Positions 49,575 through 63,048 of a stretch of 64,000 nucleotides of DNA are shown piece by piece. A program made the translations under genes and the position numbers. This stretch comes from a virus. The DNA is taken from the IMG/VR virus record IMGVR_UViG_3300032289_002472, positions 1 through 64,000 of that record; one strand, given 5' to 3'. The notes under the pieces were generated by a model. The model had not been told where the DNA came from, ran no database searches, and saw only the letters and a program-made list of their open reading frames with translations. How positions within the stretch are numbered: the stretch's first letter is position 1; the number at the start of each line of letters is the position of its first letter.

Positions 49575-50264
49575 CTATTTTAATGCATCAACATACATCT
49601 GCTTCAAAGACCTTAAAACACTAATTTCAATATTTTTCCTGAATCTGGAATCTTCGACCTTATCTTGCATATATGCTTGAATCTCGTCATCAACTACTCG
49701 GGCAGCATACCCCATCTCCATTACGTTTTTCTTGAGCTGCTTATATTGAGCGGGTAAACCTTTTTTAATTCTTTTTGTTACCCCATCAACAAGCTTCCTG
49801 TATTTTAGGTCAGTATAGTATTTGGCATGGCGAATCTCGTGATTGAATAGATCGCCCTCTGTCTTGTCAGTTCCTATAATATATCCATTCAGGCAGTTAT
49901 GATATCCGACCTCAATAGTTATATCTGCAAGAATATTAGACAATACTTCGTCGTAAGGGGTCTCATAGGTCTCAGTATTCTGTAATGGCATCCAGTGTTC
50001 ACTGTAACACTTCACAATAACTTCTACCGGAATATTGAATCCTGACCAGTCACCAGGATAACTAAATTTACTGTGATGATTTTTAGCGTACCAATCCATG
50101 TAGTCCCAAATTGAAAAACCTTTATCCCTAAATTTACGATTTGGAGATTCGTAAAATTCTTGAACACGGCAAAACGTCATACCGCGCTCATATTGATCTT
50201 TAATTACTACCGCAAATATACGGGGTTCGATAATGCTGATAGTATAATTAACCAAGTGTTTCAT
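49575..50264 (-). CDS. conserved phage protein (HExxH)
   Basis: RVQEFYES...WSGFNIP...HEIRH. Confidence 0.65.
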   Translation of the reverse strand: MKHLVNYTISIIEPRIFAVVIKDQYERGMTFCRVQEFYESPNRKFRDKGFSIWDYMDWYAKNHHSKFSYPGDWSGFNIPVEVIVKCYSEHWMPLQNTETYETPYDEVLSNILADITIEVGYHNCLNGYIIGTDKTEGDLFNHEIRHAKYYTDLKYRKLVDGVTKRIKKGLPAQYKQLKKNVMEMGYAARVVDDEIQAYMQDKVEDSRFRKNIEISVLRSLKQMYVDALK

Positions 50265-51262
50265 TAGTCTTTATAGTTTCTGTTAATTATTTTAAAGCTG
50301 AGGGGACGACCATTTCCTGAGGTTTTGTAGGTTACTGGACGAACTACAATACCTTCTGCTGGCGTTCCATGAAGCGTAACAGTTGAGTCTGCCAGCTCTT
50401 GAAGAGATTCAATACCAGACTGTACACCATCAAGGGTTTTGAACCCTATCAATGGCACCATATTCATTCTGTTGTTAATACAGAAGTCGGCCATCTCATT
50501 GAAGTCGTAATACTCATAGTCTTTTTCTTTGACCTGAAATACATACAACGTTGGCTGCATCAGCTTGAGTTGATTGCCCTGAATTCCAGGACCCATTAAC
50601 TCTCCCTGAATATATCCACTCCAATCTTCTTGTATTTCGAGCTTCTTGGCAGCAATCCAAAATGCATTTGTATCACTCTCTTTTAAAGAAAGCCTTCTGC
50701 TGCAAACCTGTGTTATTTTCCCCTTTTCAATAATGATTGTACAAGAGCTACCATCTAATTTTTGAGTAATAGTGACTCCACCCTCATTAACTTTGAGGAT
50801 TTCTTCAACTATATCAAAGTTAGAGAGACCATTGTCTTCGTCAGTAGAGGAAATTAAATAGCTAGGAAAAGGTCCTAGCACCTCTCCAGACAAGCAGGCA
50901 GGGATCTCTTTTTCGTATTTCTTAATTCCTAAAGCTCCACCTACGTCTGCTCCTATGTGCCAAGACTGAACATTCTCTGGTAGAACACTCAGTGGCAACA
51001 ATAAGCCTTGAGAGTATTGGCCACGCAACTTTATTGTTTTGAGCCTAATCGATTTTTCTGGATCGTTCTTGTGCGCCAAAAACTCAGACCAATCAGCTGC
51101 TGGGAGAATGGTGTCAATAACGACAAAGACAACCTTATCCCCCACTTTAAATTCGTTTTTTTTAACTATCGACTGCCATCCCAATACTTTAGCTATCTCT
51201 AAACTATCAGCATTGTTGTGTGGCACTATTTCTTTGACTACTTCAATTGAGGCAAGTTTCAT
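50264..51262 (-). CDS. RNA ligase, DRB0094/Rnl5 family
   Basis: N-terminal OB (NADSLE...LRGQYSQG), KLDGSS, QGE, EGIVVR, FKIIN. Confidence 0.9.
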   Translation of the reverse strand: MKLASIEVVKEIVPHNNADSLEIAKVLGWQSIVKKNEFKVGDKVVFVVIDTILPAADWSEFLAHKNDPEKSIRLKTIKLRGQYSQGLLLPLSVLPENVQSWHIGADVGGALGIKKYEKEIPACLSGEVLGPFPSYLISSTDEDNGLSNFDIVEEILKVNEGGVTITQKLDGSSCTIIIEKGKITQVCSRRLSLKESDTNAFWIAAKKLEIQEDWSGYIQGELMGPGIQGNQLKLMQPTLYVFQVKEKDYEYYDFNEMADFCINNRMNMVPLIGFKTLDGVQSGIESLQELADSTVTLHGTPAEGIVVRPVTYKTSGNGRPLSFKIINRNYKD

Positions 51263-54005: not shown

Positions 54006-54078
54006 GGGGGTTTAGCTCATTTGGTAGAGCGTCTGCTTTGCAAGCAGAGGGTGAGGAGTTCGAATCTCCTAACCTCCA
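54006..54078 (+). tRNA. tRNA-Ala(TGC)
   Basis: Cloverleaf, G3-U70. Confidence 0.93.
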
Positions 54079-55912: not shown

Positions 55913-56686
55913 TTAATAAAGTTTAACAGATAAGACCCCATCGTCAACAACTCCATAATGCTTTTCTGTGTCCAAACACCAAGATTCATGTGCCTCACCT
56001 TGAGCATATATCTCTGGATCAACAAAGGTTGTGTGACCAAAGATTTGCTTACCAATATGCTTTGAAGGAGTAAACTCATGTCTTCCATCCAGCCAAAGAA
56101 GCCCACCTATTTGAGCGCTTCCATATCTGCATCGGCCCACATCGGTAATGAAGTAATTACGATTATGAGAAAAATTTCTAAAGTTTGACCAAACATCTGG
56201 CAATACTTTATCAATTAATTCATCAATTGATTCATTAAAATTAAGATGGTCGGGCATTATTCCAGCATGTGAATAAATAATACCCTGAGACTTGTAAGCT
56301 AATTTTATATTTTTTGCGAAGAATTCATCTCTCAAGTTGTTATCAAAAAACACCTTACGAAATTGCTTGGCTTTATTTTTGGTAAAGCCTGAACAATAGT
56401 ATTCTCTGACTGGAACAATATTAGTGTGGGAGTGAGCCTTGTTTAAATAGATATATTGTACGTCATGGTTGCCCAACAAGAACACGAACTTGTCCCTTTC
56501 GGGATGATCCGTCATTAGGTCTCGCAAGAATAGACAGGTATCTAAAAAAGACGCGACATGCGGAGGTTCAAAAAAGGAGTCAAACCAGTCACCCAGAAAG
56601 ACTACCTCATCATAGCTTTCTTTTTTAAGCACATCCTCAACCAAAACAACTCTTTGATGTATATCAGGGATTATTAAAGTTTTCAT
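55913..56686 (-). CDS. calcineurin-like metallophosphoesterase
   Basis: PDIH, GDWFD, GNHD, HAG, GHT. Confidence 0.88.
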   Translation of the reverse strand: MKTLIIPDIHQRVVLVEDVLKKESYDEVVFLGDWFDSFFEPPHVASFLDTCLFLRDLMTDHPERDKFVFLLGNHDVQYIYLNKAHSHTNIVPVREYYCSGFTKNKAKQFRKVFFDNNLRDEFFAKNIKLAYKSQGIIYSHAGIMPDHLNFNESIDELIDKVLPDVWSNFRNFSHNRNYFITDVGRCRYGSAQIGGLLWLDGRHEFTPSKHIGKQIFGHTTFVDPEIYAQGEAHESWCLDTEKHYGVVDDGVLSVKLY

Positions 56687-56691
56687 AAAAA

Positions 56692-57157
56692 ATCGGCTGT
56701 CGTGTCTCAAGGTCTACGACGAATACTTTCGAACAGATAGGTCTATAGTTAGCGCCCTATCCTAGGTATATCAACTCGCCTCGCCTGAAGAAAGTCAAAT
56801 GAATGACTTTCTAACTCTCGGTGGCCGTCACCGTGCTTATGGTTACAACACCCCATTTTTGCGGAAACCATCCGCTTCTATCGTGAGTAGGATCTCACTA
56901 GAAGGCTAGTTATGCCCTCACGAATTAATTGAATGGCCCTAAACTATAACGGCGTCGGCTTGCGCTACTAACCTCTTTTTCTAGACTATGGTTAGTAGAC
57001 CATTCAAAGTAAAGAGACGGAAGGCCGTGTACTGTGGCACTCTATACTATAGGTATAGCGCCAAACCAGCTTCCCGAAATATATTTCGGGAACCCCGAAG
57101 CACCGCAACCTTCACCCATTTGGGCAGCTCGGTCTGCCGAATACTCAGCAGCATCTC
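56692..57157 (-). ncRNA. unassigned large structured RNA(s)
   Basis: About 460-nt GC-enriched region without a credible ORF, with at least 10 stems. Confidence 0.55.
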
Positions 57158-57324
57158 AAAGTATCTGTAACAAATTCATTCGGAACCCATAATGTCTGCA
57201 AAGTATCTTCATGATAATAGCAAACACAGCTTTGAGTATCACCTTTATCTAAGATAGATTGTAGCTGAAATTCTGTATAATCAGGAAATATACAAAACTT
57301 TTTAATTTGTGTATTTGTATTCAT
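57145..57324 (-). CDS. small hypothetical protein (59 aa, not in track)
   Basis: MNTNTQIKKFCIFPDY... Confidence 0.45.
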   Translation of the reverse strand: MNTNTQIKKFCIFPDYTEFQLQSILDKGDTQSCVCYYHEDTLQTLWVPNEFVTDTLRCC

Positions 57325-57331
57325 TTTAAAA

Positions 57332-57409
57332 TGGAGGTGGTCGGAATCGAACCGACGTTATGAGAACTATTGATTTGTGTCAACACTCATACGAAGCCAA
57401 TGCACCCCC
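57332..57409 (-). ncRNA. minimal tmRNA (tRNA-like domain only)
   Basis: GGGGGTG/CACCTCC-A with G3-U70, no D stem, long P2-like stem, GTTCGATTC T-loop. Confidence 0.7.
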
Positions 57410-57414
57410 CTAAA

Positions 57415-57969
57415 TTAGTCTTCTTCGGGCACAGGAGTATAATCTAACTCTTTTGCCTTTTCGGAGCAAAGAGTTTTAAACCACCCACCCCTAGAGTGCA
57501 AGCTTCCAGGAGCTCCTGTCACTTCACACGTTCTGCCAGAAATATATTCGGCAAAGTCTACAGCGCTTTGAATTCTTTGATCCAATTGCCAGTAGTATGC
57601 TTCTACTTTATCTAAGTCTAATTTTTCCCTTCCAGGAAAGTCTTGTTGCATTGCCTTTATGTAAAAATAGACCCTAAGAGTAGCATACTTTTCTTTTATC
57701 TGTGTGAATATGACCTCAGGAGCTGGAAGATAAACTATATTATCTTCCCAGTGCTCTTTGTCTTTTTTATAAAACTCATCTTTGACCCCCATGGTATGAT
57801 TACTTGTAACCATGCGCTTTATATATCCACAAAGGTCATCAAGTATTTTATACCAACCATCGTCGCATTCGCACCCAAAACACATTAATGATTCTGTGGG
57901 TGGAAGTTTATGTCCTTGAAAAAACTCGGGGTATTTTTCAGTTAGTGACTTTTTTAGCTCTTCTTTCAT
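57415..57969 (-). CDS. conserved phage hypothetical protein
   Basis: ECDDGW...QIKEKYATLRVY...TCEVTG..G...GGWFKTLC. Confidence 0.75.
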   Translation of the reverse strand: MKEELKKSLTEKYPEFFQGHKLPPTESLMCFGCECDDGWYKILDDLCGYIKRMVTSNHTMGVKDEFYKKDKEHWEDNIVYLPAPEVIFTQIKEKYATLRVYFYIKAMQQDFPGREKLDLDKVEAYYWQLDQRIQSAVDFAEYISGRTCEVTGAPGSLHSRGGWFKTLCSEKAKELDYTPVPEED

Positions 57970-58214
57970 TTTTTCGAAGAATGGTTATTAGCAGACTTTT
58001 GCCAAACTTCATAATGTATTCCTACACACCCCTTCTTTTTTCTCTTTTTAATTCGTTGAACTAAAGCCGCATGTCGACAATTTCGTTTAACTTCGTCCAT
58101 GATTTTGTAAGCCATGGTCATCTCTCCTTCAAGAAAGGGACCAGCTAAAATGTGAAAACCATTAGACCTAGCCTCTTTTTCTGTAATGTATTTGTGATTA
58201 ATTAATTCGCTCAT
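57966..58214 (-). CDS. hypothetical protein
   Basis: Start trimmed to ATG after the tRNA. Confidence 0.55.
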   Translation of the reverse strand: MSELINHKYITEKEARSNGFHILAGPFLEGEMTMAYKIMDEVKRNCRHAALVQRIKKRKKKGCVGIHYEVWQKSANNHSSKK

Positions 58215-58235
58215 GTTGTTGTTCTTTAAAATAAA

Positions 58236-58316
58236 TAGCGTAGGAGGGACTCGAACCCTCAAGACTTTCGTCGACAGATTTTAAGTCTGTTGTGTATGCC
58301 ATTCCACCACTACGCC
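58236..58316 (-). tRNA. tRNA-Leu(TAA)
   Basis: ACAGA-CTTAAAA-TCTGT, variable arm. Confidence 0.9.
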
Positions 58317-58467
58317 CAAATTTACTATTTAGCTATGCCCCGCTTTTGTAATCTCTTGAGTCTTGCCTTGCGAGCATATTTGCTCTCGTGCATTGGATCC
58401 TCTTCAAGCATTTTGCGACGACGTTCTTCTTTTTCTTTTTGTATCTGTTCTCGTTTCTTAGACATGT

Positions 58468-59337
58468 TTAAAACATACGTGTAAAGGCGAGCGTCCCCAT
58501 TGGTATTTGAGGTACTCCATTGCCATAATTTCTCGATCCGTAATAGATGTGTGGGCTGTGAATATAAAAATGCCCAGCCTTGTTATTTGAGTTTGTCTCT
58601 GCCATTTGCCTGATCTCTAAAGCTAGTGCTTTTAATATATTTTTTGTGTTGGGGGAATAAGTATTCTTATCCACCCTTTTCCACATGTGATCATCATCAA
58701 CTTGTATATCCTTGAAGGTCGGTGTGTGCTCCCATTTACGAATTAAGTCCGCACAGAAATAAACAGAATTTCTAGACTTTAATCCAAGGGTTAACATCAA
58801 AACTGAACGAGGACCACTATTTATATCTTTAGACAAAATAGCGTTTATATCATTCATGACAGAAGGACAAACATAACCCAAATAATCAGCATAAATAATA
58901 TCAAAATGATGATCACTAGGAATACCTGTCTGTGGGCTTCTGATTAAAGCTTCTGACAGGTGTCCATGCTGATGGGTCATGTTGAATGTAGCTCTACCCC
59001 CATAATCGTTTGACAACTGTTCAGCCACAGAAGTAGCCATAGAATGAATACTAGGATTGTTTTCGCATCCCCAAAAACAAAATCTGTTCTCAGGAAAACT
59101 TTCAACAATGCTTCTTTCATGTGCCCACTCTTGGGCTGGTAGTGTCAGAAAATTAACTGTCTGTCCCTTTTCAAGGGCTGAAGCTAGTAAGGGAGCGATA
59201 AATCTATTACTGTAATCTTGATCCAATCTTTTATTACGATTCTTTTCTGGGCATGATACAAATGACATGTTTCTTTGAAATAGACTTGATGCATTTTTCA
59301 ATTTCTTTCCAGCTACACCCTTGAAGACTGCACCCAA
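58468..59337 (-). CDS. putative SAM-dependent methyltransferase-like protein
   Basis: FWGCEN and FDIIYADY Rossmann-like motifs. Confidence 0.4.
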   Translation of the reverse strand: MGAVFKGVAGKKLKNASSLFQRNMSFVSCPEKNRNKRLDQDYSNRFIAPLLASALEKGQTVNFLTLPAQEWAHERSIVESFPENRFCFWGCENNPSIHSMATSVAEQLSNDYGGRATFNMTHQHGHLSEALIRSPQTGIPSDHHFDIIYADYLGYVCPSVMNDINAILSKDINSGPRSVLMLTLGLKSRNSVYFCADLIRKWEHTPTFKDIQVDDDHMWKRVDKNTYSPNTKNILKALALEIRQMAETNSNNKAGHFYIHSPHIYYGSRNYGNGVPQIPMGTLAFTRMF

Positions 59338-59683
59338 GCTTGTATGGAAAATAAAGATTAATATTAGGAAATGCTTCGACGATCTTTGATAAAGATTGCT
59401 TAAATGCTAAATATTCAAACTTGTTTTGATTGTTATTGGGCATCAAACAATAAATATTAGCGACACTAAGCTCATCAGTTACACGAACAACAGAAGACTG
59501 ACCCAACACATCCAATGGAGATCTCTTGAGTGTAGTTTCAATATGTTCCTGCAAAACCTTAGGGAATTTTTTGGTAACCTGGAAAGAAAACCCGCCTGAC
59601 ATTTGATCACCGCAGCTCACGGGGTGAACAATCACCCCAGAGCTAACGGTAAGAACGTCTTTTACTACTGTAGCCATGGTCAC
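59234..59683 (-). CDS. macro domain (ADP-ribose processing) protein
   Basis: IVH.V.C...MSGG...KKFP; VANIY; PYKLGCSLQG.SW. Confidence 0.7.
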   Translation of the reverse strand: MTMATVVKDVLTVSSGVIVHPVSCGDQMSGGFSFQVTKKFPKVLQEHIETTLKRSPLDVLGQSSVVRVTDELSVANIYCLMPNNNQNKFEYLAFKQSLSKIVEAFPNINLYFPYKLGCSLQGCSWKEIEKCIKSISKKHVICIMPRKES

Positions 59684-61854: not shown

Positions 61855-63048
61855 CTAATAGTAGCCGTACATTCCGTCATAGCTTCGAGCCATTAAATAC
61901 TTGCGCTCGTTAATCCACGACTCAATTGTATCGGCAAGTTTCTCTTTTGAGATGCCCCATGTAGCTAAAATATTAGCGTCCACAGCGGTAAGCACCTCAA
62001 GTTTCGTTTCATCTAACTGATGGTCGAAAGTAGTCAAAATGTCACATAGCTCAGCTTGTGTCATCCTAAAGTTTCGACATATTTTATCTACTGACGGCTC
62101 CAATAGGTCTTTAGTTTGTTCCTCCCCAAGACCTAAAGAACCCTGATGGGGGCTTTGGGAATATCCCACCTTTTTCTTTTTTTTGTTTTTTTTTGAGGCT
62201 TTTTTGGACTCCCACCACTCCCAGTATGGATTTGTGGATCCAGAAGAATAATTGGAAGCATATTCAGAAGAACCTCCGTAGTTATTAACTACAGTAAAAC
62301 TCTTCTTTGGTGGCTCCACTCGATTCTTCATCCATTCTTCAATCAAGCCCTCTTCAGCCAACTCTTCAGTGTTTTGTTTCACCAAAAAATTAGTTGTATA
62401 TTCTTGAATAGCTTTAGGAGCCCTAGAACCAATGTAGTCACTGGGAATTTCGATGAAGTCACTCATCTTAACAGGACAGAAAAAGACTTGAGCTTTTTCT
62501 ACTGTCTCCTCCCCCTCCTCATTGACGACAATTTTCCCAGGAATAACTACCGTAAAACGAACGTGAACATCTACTTCTTTCTCGTCAATTTTACCAATAG
62601 TTATGTGAATACCTGGAGAATTTTGCTCATCGTTTTTGTCGGTTCCAGATTGGAATGCGCCCATATTACAGTGTGAGTGGCATGTCCCCCACTGATAATA
62701 TTTACCGCCCTCCAATACCTCATTCATTTGAGCCTGAAAGGTTTCATGGTCTGGCAACTCTTTAGTTGTCATTCCAGTATCCTTTTCTTGAGGGAAGGCC
62801 CAAGCCTTCCACTCTTTGGTAACATCACTATAAAAAAGCCTAACTTGTGCCTCAGCTTTTTCATCTTTATTTACCTTGCGAAAAAAGGAAGCAATTGTCC
62901 TCCATAGAGACAGCTTCATCTTTCCACATCTCAACTCCAATGCTGGATCTTCTTTTATTTCTTCATATTCCACAGGAAAAAACCCCGACAACTTATCGTT
63001 AATTTCTTTTTTGATTAGTGGCTTACCACTATGAATGAATAATTTCAT
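61855..63048 (-). CDS. JAB/MPN-like metalloprotease domain protein
   Basis: E...GTCHSHCNMGAFQSGTDKNDE...GIHITIG. Confidence 0.8.
   Translation of the reverse strand: MKLFIHSGKPLIKKEINDKLSGFFPVEYEEIKEDPALELRCGKMKLSLWRTIASFFRKVNKDEKAEAQVRLFYSDVTKEWKAWAFPQEKDTGMTTKELPDHETFQAQMNEVLEGGKYYQWGTCHSHCNMGAFQSGTDKNDEQNSPGIHITIGKIDEKEVDVHVRFTVVIPGKIVVNEEGEETVEKAQVFFCPVKMSDFIEIPSDYIGSRAPKAIQEYTTNFLVKQNTEELAEEGLIEEWMKNRVEPPKKSFTVVNNYGGSSEYASNYSSGSTNPYWEWWESKKASKKNKKKKKVGYSQSPHQGSLGLGEEQTKDLLEPSVDKICRNFRMTQAELCDILTTFDHQLDETKLEVLTAVDANILATWGISKEKLADTIESWINERKYLMARSYDGMYGYY

Follow-up and report, generated by a model that had tools for sequence, protein, structure and literature searches.

A 78-nt RNA gene of a freshwater phage and its relatives among tmRNAs reduced to the tRNA-like domain

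Described tmRNAs of phages, organelles and laboratory constructs

Trans-translation is the main bacterial route for freeing stalled ribosomes and an antibiotic target, and it is needed by some phages. Full-length phage tmRNAs, which are of the ssrA type and manipulate trans-translation, are known from Bxz1-like mycobacteriophages, Bacillus phage G and the marine phage Melnitz (PMC4131195, PMC9004378); they retain the tag template, unlike the RNA described here, and were detected by ARAGORN in 2.3% of 18,146 phage genomes (PMC9004378). The form consisting of the tRNA-like domain (TLD) only escapes this count. For that form, Hudson, Lau and Williams list "Mycobacterium phage DS6A (TLD only)" (PMC4131195), which corresponds to tmID 11587 of the tmRNA Website, "Standard, no CDS" (Mao et al. 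2009, as cited in PMC4131195 and PMC11915505), and the 2025 tmRNA database is reported to hold nine "Standard, no CDS" sequences and 79 phage sequences (PMC11915505). The DS6A form is reported to inhibit the endogenous tmRNA in E. coli (PMC11915505, PMC4131195). The inhibition by such a TLD-like molecule is given as strong (PMC4131195, PMC11915505) and, according to Hudson et al., occurs whether or not the molecule is chargeable, "perhaps acting by titrating SmpB" (PMC4131195). In the literature searched, we found no description of the breadth of the TLD-only family beyond PMC11915505.

Molecules of the same design, with a TLD closed by a short helix, have been engineered from Thermus, Aquifex or E. 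coli tmRNA for TLD-SmpB crystals and for the Ala-TLD-SmpB-EF-Tu complex on the 70S ribosome (PDB 4ABR; cited in PMC3968760 and PMC3895274). Such fragments are reported to bind SmpB and EF-Tu, to enter stalled ribosomes and to accept peptide (PMC3968760, PMC3895274), the Ala-TLD-SmpB-EF-Tu complex having been solved on the stalled ribosome (PMC3968760) and peptidyl transfer to TLD-only tmRNA having been reported (PMC3895274). They are laboratory constructs, whereas the RNA described here is a natural gene under selection. CDS-less tmRNAs are also found in organelles, as the jakobid-type mitochondrial "Permuted, no CDS" class and the ~65-bp Mallomonadaceae plastid form (PMC11915505), and these are similar in keeping an alanine-accepting TLD after loss of the tag template, with action through SmpB presumed. 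However, they are mostly permuted two-piece genes and represent vertical reduction of a resident rescue system, whereas the phage RNA is an added gene that, unlike the organellar forms, would have to compete with an intact host tmRNA.

Structure and tmRNA identity of the 78-nt RNA gene

In the window, by which we mean the first 64 kb of the viral record, a 78-nt RNA gene (hereafter mini-tmRNA) is located on the minus strand and runs from 57409 to 57332, RNA nucleotide i corresponding to window position 57410-i (Table 1). The first-pass annotation had reported a G3-U70 pair, A73, an unpaired D-loop, a P2-like stem and a T-arm at this place, and inspection of sequence and fold revealed all of them on the minus strand. 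The acceptor stem consists of 7 bp (G1-C77, G2-C76, G3·U75, G4-C74, G5-C73, U6-A72 and G7-C71), of which G3·U75 is the 3:70 pair. The P2-like helix is made up of a lower stem, UAUGAG (nt 19-24) with CUCAUA (nt 46-51), and an upper stem, UGUUGA (nt 25-30) with UCAAUA (nt 37-42), with a hairpin loop of CACAAA and a 3-nt bulge, GUU, at nt 43-45. The centroid fold is the TLD plus the P2-like hairpin, with a minimum free energy of -25.7 kcal/mol (z = -2.6 relative to shuffles). The 3′ end reads CUCCA-UUUU, so that CCA is not encoded, and CCA is likewise absent from 8 of the 12 tRNA genes of the phage. A scan for promoters and terminators around the gene gave nothing over the shuffled expectation.

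Table 1. Features of the mini-tmRNA gene and its surroundings (window coordinates)
Feature	Position	Strand	Description and basis
mini-tmRNA gene	57332..57409	-	From G1 at 57409 to the discriminator A at 57332, confined to the tRNA-like domain; RF00023, leave-one-out model R2, fold
Acceptor stem, 5′ strand	57403..57409	-	GGGGGUG, including G3 of the alanine identity pair G3·U70; sequence
D-loop analogue	57392..57402	-	CAUUGGCUUCG, nt 8-18, unpaired; GG at 12-13 are the T-loop partners; sequence
P2-like hairpin	57359..57391	-	Stands in place of the entire mRNA-like and pseudoknot body; fold
Junction A52-C53	57357..57358	-	Equivalent to E. coli A334-C335; family alignment and PMC8363625
T arm	57340..57356	-	GUCGG-UUCGAUU-CCGAC, nt 54-70; sequence, fold
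Acceptor stem, 3′ strand, and discriminator	57332..57339	-	CACCUCC plus discriminator A (A78, 57332), no encoded CCA; sequence
Leader	57410..57414	-	5 nt, UUUAG, from upstream ORF stop codon to G1; presumed RNase P substrate; sequence
Trailer	57325..57331	-	7 nt, UUUUAAA, ahead of the ATG of the next ORF; sequence
Upstream ORF	57415..57969	-	184 aa, no assigned function; homologues of 32-33% identity in two distant relatives without the RNA gene
Downstream ORF	57145..57324	-	59 aa, Cys-rich, putative gene
tRNA-Leu(UAA)	58236..58316	-	Nearest tRNA gene on the same strand
tRNA-Ala(UGC)	54006..54078	+	True tRNA-Ala; first six acceptor pairs (GGGGGU/ACCUCC-A) in common with mini-tmRNA
RNA ligase	50264..51262	-	PF09414 plus PHA02142 OB domain; in the tRNA-rich region
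Metallophosphoesterase	55913..56710	-	Calcineurin-like; candidate RNA end-healing enzyme

The absence of an anticodon loop, a tag ORF and a pseudoknot, which had also been claimed, was borne out by the length, the fold and ARAGORN. Only 33 nt lie between the two TLD halves, all of them in the hairpin and without a GCN codon, and they provide neither a tag ORF nor a resume codon; pseudoknots PK1-PK4 and the long H2 helix are absent, the length and fold leaving no room for them. One candidate for a hidden tag was the 7-codon AUG...UAG run at nt 20-43 (AUG AGU GUU GAC ACA AAU CAA UAG); it is base-paired and has neither a GCN resume codon nor an upstream single strand, and was treated as probably due to chance. 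At the junction of TLD and P2, the mini-tmRNA reads UUCGUA...UAAC and the standard tandem G·A motif UUCGAC...GGAC, with GGAC present in 56 of 89 family members among the matches listed. The G18·A52 position is kept, and a U19-A51 pair stands in place of the equivalent of A20·G333; since U19-A51 replaces one G·A pair, the affinity for SmpB may differ.

Searches with tmRNA models, suggested as checks in the first-pass annotation, gave a divided outcome. The mini-tmRNA aligned over its full length with Rfam RF00023 and scored 48.8 bits, the gathering score being 47 (E-value, 3e-16 within the window and 1.2e-19 when the genome was searched); the entire central part of the 374-position model is deleted in this alignment. 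By contrast, ARAGORN at default settings called neither a tRNA nor a tmRNA at 57332-57409; the Rfam tRNA model made no call there either. A covariance model (R2) trained on 30 other phage elements, the element of this window being left out, gave the mini-tmRNA 69.1 bits (E-value, 3.7e-13), as against 24.9 bits for the phage's own tRNA-Ala and 24.9 bits or less for the phage tRNAs. This result contradicts a reading as degenerate tRNA-Ala and agrees with the earlier claim that the element is distinct from the true tRNA-Ala(UGC). The mini-tmRNA resembles tRNA-Ala in G3·U70 and A73, the canonical T arm and the need for processing and CCA, and its first six acceptor pairs equal those of the phage tRNA-Ala, but it is devoid of a D stem and an anticodon arm. 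From these common acceptor pairs, the two RNAs should be substrates of the same AlaRS.

The 3′ 24-mer of the mini-tmRNA has exact matches in 29 bacterial genomes, and 8 of the 10 matches checked were 3′ ends of full-length tmRNAs called by ARAGORN, the 5′ ends of which (GGGGGUGCAYUGGYUUCGA) are like that of the mini-tmRNA. Because both ends match full-length tmRNAs, the mini-tmRNA corresponds to a tmRNA TLD with its halves joined by a short hairpin. Compared with canonical tmRNA (ssrA, RF00023), the TLD is retained almost letter for letter, with the 3′ 27 nt identical and the 5′ 18 nt having 1-2 differences from tmRNAs of Flavobacteriaceae, Bacteriovoracaceae and Acidobacteriota MAGs, whereas about 290 nt comprising the long H2, four pseudoknots, the resume codon, the tag ORF and H5 are missing, CCA is not encoded, and the molecule cannot act as a template.

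In the DS6A genome, model R2 found exactly one match (GenBank:JN698994, 28478-28557, plus strand; our L157) with 55.8 bits, located in the gp33-gp34 gap, unannotated in the GenBank record and below the Rfam tmRNA gathering score. Since R2 found this element even though it fits neither of the two search patterns described below, the window element is tied to the published type by an independent sequence. The DS6A TLD-only RNA and the mini-tmRNA are both phage-borne, about 80 nt long, and have G3·U70 and A73, an unpaired D-loop, a short hairpin-closed P2, a T arm and no tag ORF. They differ in that 1) DS6A is a 60-kb temperate mycobacteriophage and the window's phage a freshwater phage of ~157 kb (estimated), unrelated to it in phage type and habitat, 2) the DS6A element has ~70% GC, as against 39% in the window's phage, 3) the D-loop is GGCUUCGUA in the mini-tmRNA and GGUGGUCGAC in DS6A, 4) U19-A51 replaces one G·A pair in the mini-tmRNA, and 5) the Rfam tmRNA cut-off is passed by the mini-tmRNA but not by the DS6A element.

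The claimed identity as a tmRNA tRNA-like domain therefore stands on the Rfam score, the leave-one-out model, the link to DS6A and the 3′ 24-nt identity to bacterial tmRNA genes, and it is well supported that the phage's mini-tmRNA gene is genuine and specifies a tmRNA of which the tRNA-like domain alone is left ("standard, no CDS" form). The novelty of the type had been overstated, as the tmRNA database already includes it as "Standard, no CDS"; the type is known but sparsely documented, and the breadth of the family is the point of interest.

Phage background and distribution of the family

The record is 113,067 bp long (estimated to be ~72% complete) with a GC content of ~39%, and carries genes of a tailed phage, including those for a large terminase, a DnaE-type polymerase, UvsX, DnaB, SbcC and tail fibre proteins, with identity of at most ~32% to any cultured phage. 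On the minus strand lie 123 of the 140 predicted ORFs, and the mini-tmRNA gene is co-oriented with its neighbours. Twelve tRNA genes are present in the record, those for Gly, Pro, Ser, Thr, Ala, Val and Leu being situated between 49 and 58 kb. The two ORFs flanking the mini-tmRNA gene matched no Pfam or PHROG family, and ESM Atlas gave hypothetical phage proteins only. The RNA ligase and the phosphoesterase look like an RNA-repair pair and have 52-55% identity to their counterparts in two distant relatives (L126 and L127); DS6A also has an RtcB-like ligase (gp76). In the 113-kb record (~72% complete), no gene for SmpB, a CCA-adding enzyme, an RF-1/ArfB domain or a tyrosine integrase was found. 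Since the record has no SmpB gene, any action of the mini-tmRNA would depend wholly on host factors.

Two further observations were made in the record. At window positions 893-1719 (minus strand), the intron option of ARAGORN revealed a gene resembling tRNA-Phe(GAA) and interrupted by 731 nt; the 3′ part of the interruption matches the Rfam model of the group I intron core (954-1151, 63.6 bits). When joined, the exons form a cloverleaf with an encoded CCA and an unusually long extra region (~25 nt), followed by a terminator-like hairpin; the gene was missed by default ARAGORN and the Rfam tRNA model, and the intron ORFs have no Pfam match. Outside the window, at record positions 89641-91158 (minus strand; L124:5641-7158), a 505-aa protein encoded among replication genes matches the PHROG annotations "polymerase" and "reverse transcriptase".

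No relatives were found in searches for related loci with the 184-aa upstream ORF and a 397-aa ORF (61855-63048), and a search with the phosphoesterase returned L126 and L127, the two distant relatives, whose proteins are 53-55% identical to those of the phage where genes are shared. Both keep the ligase, the homologue of the 184-aa ORF and the phosphoesterase; the mini-tmRNA is absent, and its syntenic slot holds overlapping ORFs. Because the element is missing at the syntenic place in these distant relatives, the mini-tmRNA is a sporadic accessory gene. Against cultured phages, blastn of the 78 nt gave no match, and blastn of 56800-58400 matched the tRNA-Leu only. Contigs of the same phage population were present in lake and freshwater metagenomes from several studies, and the gene is retained in four of them. 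The differences listed among the lake strains are U10C in the D-loop, loss in the leader of an extra G before G1, and an AA insertion in the leader; the leader indels leave the mature mini-tmRNA untouched. Among the public runs listed for 56000-59500, none with RNA data carried the region, a result that is neutral as to expression. Elsewhere, the lake strains have a 92-nt insertion at 56922/56923 and a replacement of 69 nt by 66 other letters at 58016-58086, each in an ORF flanking the RNA region.

As for the host, the 29 exact matches of the 3′ 24-mer (Acidobacteriota, Bdellovibrionota and others) were considered as a clue and set aside, since with ~5 free positions across 185,579 species they are compatible with chance. 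Shine-Dalgarno sequences were not enriched (14 of 107 predicted starts, 13%, versus a background of 11.8%), and the regions upstream of predicted starts are A-rich and G-poor. This lack of enrichment may point to a host in which SD is not used, for example one of the Bacteroidota; TANNTTTG, the -7 box of Bacteroidota promoters, was not enriched (69 versus 71 expected).

To describe the family, IMG/VR was searched with two patterns. Pattern 1, a TLD closed by 25-55 nt, gave at least 89 unique sequences of 65-92 nt. Pattern 2 used interior motifs only (UUCGAC...GGAC plus the T arm) and left the acceptor unconstrained; it gave at least 113 unique elements, 108 of them with a recognisable acceptor helix, and 51 of these 108 had been missed by pattern 1. 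Both patterns together yielded at least 140 distinct mini-tmRNA elements in IMG/VR contigs. Invariant columns of the family are partly owed to the search patterns; the pairs left free in pattern 1 (5:68, 6:67 and three T-stem pairs) are standard in all 89 sequences listed, with all four Watson-Crick types represented, the T-stem pairs being 100% paired with the four types all seen among the matches listed. In a model-guided family alignment, 97.1% of the cells were paired, with both-sided changes in 504 cells versus 145 in shuffles, and controls in which the partners were slid by 1-3 columns gave pairing of only 43-54%; the P2 helix shows covariation at 7 of its 7 pairs.

The carriers of the family are otherwise unrelated to the window's phage. 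ARAGORN never called the element itself in 60 other carrier loci, 17 of which have tRNA genes, and in 11 of the 60 the element abuts a tRNA at tRNA-like spacing. At two loci (L008:2976-3318 and L057:5905-6228), ARAGORN reported long "tmRNAs" whose tags are not plausible, one of them being a 30-residue AVPDTG... peptide; these "tmRNAs" end exactly at the mini-tmRNA 3′ end and are probably false extensions of TLD-only genes. A pattern fixing the acceptor and T arm of the window's element had no match in viral contigs. Its sole match in metagenome contigs (L159:1153-1227, plus strand) is 75 nt long and agrees with the window's RNA in acceptor stem and T arm but not in the interior; it lies in an SD-using gene context unrelated to that of the window.

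Although pattern 2 leaves the acceptor free, 107 of the 108 elements listed have G3·U70 and all 108 have A73; acceptor pairs 4:69, 5:68 and 6:67 vary freely among them, and CCA is encoded in only 32. G3·U70 and the discriminator A73 constitute the alanine identity of tmRNA (PMC3968760). With regard to SmpB, Trp122 of the E. coli protein inserts in a pocket formed by A15, U17 and A334 of tmRNA, and C18 and G19 stack on SmpB, the G19C change abolishing binding (PMC8363625). The equivalents of U17, C18, G19 and A334 are all present in the mini-tmRNA as U16, C17, G18 and A52, and the A334 equivalent, which pattern 1 does not require, is conserved at 90% or more in the alignment of 89 listed sequences.

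Possible role at the stalled ribosome

From the conserved identity nucleotides and the published work on TLD-only constructs, we infer processing, charging, SmpB binding, ribosome entry and a benefit to the phage. On balance, we lean towards the view that the mini-tmRNA may compete with the host tmRNA at stalled ribosomes and so blunt trans-translation. It would be made within a long minus-strand transcript and excised in the manner of a tRNA, with RNase P cutting at G1 and the 3′ end being trimmed, after which the host CCA-adding enzyme would add CCA and the host alanyl-tRNA synthetase would charge it with alanine via G3·U70 and A73. Host SmpB would then bind at the D-loop and elbow, and EF-Tu would deliver the complex to ribosomes stalled on broken mRNAs, in competition with the full-length host tmRNA. 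As it offers no template, the nascent chain would get at most one alanine and no degradation tag, and the net effect would be that host trans-translation, i.e. tagging and the coupled mRNA decay, is blunted during infection. Points that weigh against this view are the need of some phages for trans-translation, the altered pair at the TLD/P2 junction, the dependence on host factors and the lack of the element in the two distant relatives.

It is also possible, though rather unlikely in our estimation, that the outcome is a productive rescue without tagging, in which the Ala-charged mini-tmRNA and host SmpB would free stalled ribosomes while nascent phage proteins escape marking for proteolysis. 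The peptidyl-TLD would be released by drop-off and peptidyl-tRNA hydrolase, or by ArfB-type factors, and the setting would be a phage kit of tRNAs, RNA ligase and phosphoesterase that sustains translation when host nucleases cut RNAs. This explanation accords with the conservation of the alanine identity where the search did not ask for it, since pure titration would not need charging; with the RNA ligase and metallophosphoesterase in the same tRNA-rich region and the RtcB-like ligase of DS6A; and with CDS-less mitochondrial tmRNAs being thought to help with incomplete mRNAs (PMC11915505). However, inhibition is all that has been reported in vivo for a molecule of this kind, the step releasing the peptidyl-TLD is hypothetical, the record has no RF-1/ArfB-type domain, and the tie to the repair genes is one of proximity alone. 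A broader proposal of the same kind, which we likewise hold only tentatively, makes tag-less rescue by the mini-tmRNA one arm of a "translation maintenance" island (12 tRNAs, the RNA ligase and the end-healing phosphoesterase), through which the phage would go on translating and its proteins would stay free of tags when mRNAs, tRNAs or the host tmRNA are cleaved by host defences.

Competition by a charged mini-tmRNA, as favoured above, has also to be weighed against simple titration, in which an uncharged mini-tmRNA would take up SmpB of the host, and perhaps RNase R, at the expense of the host's own tmRNA. The inhibition reported by Hudson et al. to be independent of charging (PMC4131195) and the presence of the SmpB-contact nucleotides in the mini-tmRNA are consistent with such a sponge. 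Nevertheless, the near-invariance of G3·U70 and A73 in the 108 listed elements, with neighbouring pairs free, points to selection for recognition by AlaRS. As the charging nucleotides are conserved even though inhibition has been reported regardless of chargeability, charging is favoured over a pure sponge; the conserved pair and discriminator, judged by sequence, argue for alanine charging and not for SmpB titration alone, and we regard titration by an uncharged RNA as improbable.

Still less probable is a decoy or antidote against host defence, the mini-tmRNA mimicking the tmRNA or the top half of a tRNA and thereby absorbing or misleading defence proteins, such as the SmpB-like domains of CoCoNuT or tRNA-directed nucleases. 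In its favour are described defence systems whose SmpB-like domains may bind to tmRNA (PMC11090510), an anti-CRISPR mechanism that involves fragments of tmRNA and tRNA (PMC11662646), and the RNA repair genes nearby; on the other hand, such an interaction is hypothetical for any TLD-only RNA, and the conserved charging determinants would be left unexplained. That the element has no RNA function of its own, being a degenerate tRNA-Ala, an attachment-site leftover of a tmRNA gene or a tRNA-like cutting signal between two mRNAs, is the least probable of all: ARAGORN at an 80% threshold forces a "tRNA-Val(GAC)", the element begins 5 nt past a stop codon and ends 7 nt ahead of an ATG, and relatives do not have it, but the forced tRNA is not credible, as its D stem has only 2 bp and its anticodon stem contains two G·A mismatches, both TLD halves are present and closed by a helix where an attP remnant would keep the 3′ part only, the record has no integrase, the covariation and conserved identity nucleotides of the family indicate selection on the RNA itself, and the gene is kept in four lake populations.

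A natural TLD-only RNA is a ready-made probe of TLD action on the ribosome and of the way in which phages tune host quality control. This instance adds an example from a large freshwater phage, the U-A junction variant, the RNA-repair gene neighbours and retention across several lakes. Published accounts give one phage example (DS6A) and nine "standard, no CDS" sequences (as reported in PMC11915505), versus at least 140 distinct elements in IMG/VR. Because ARAGORN-based censuses miss TLD-only elements, phage interference with ribosome rescue is probably much commoner than annotation suggests. If the mini-tmRNA is indeed charged and acts in tag-less rescue, the G3·U70 pair and A73 conserved in more than 100 phage elements would mark a widespread and so far unrecognised counter-measure at the stalled ribosome.
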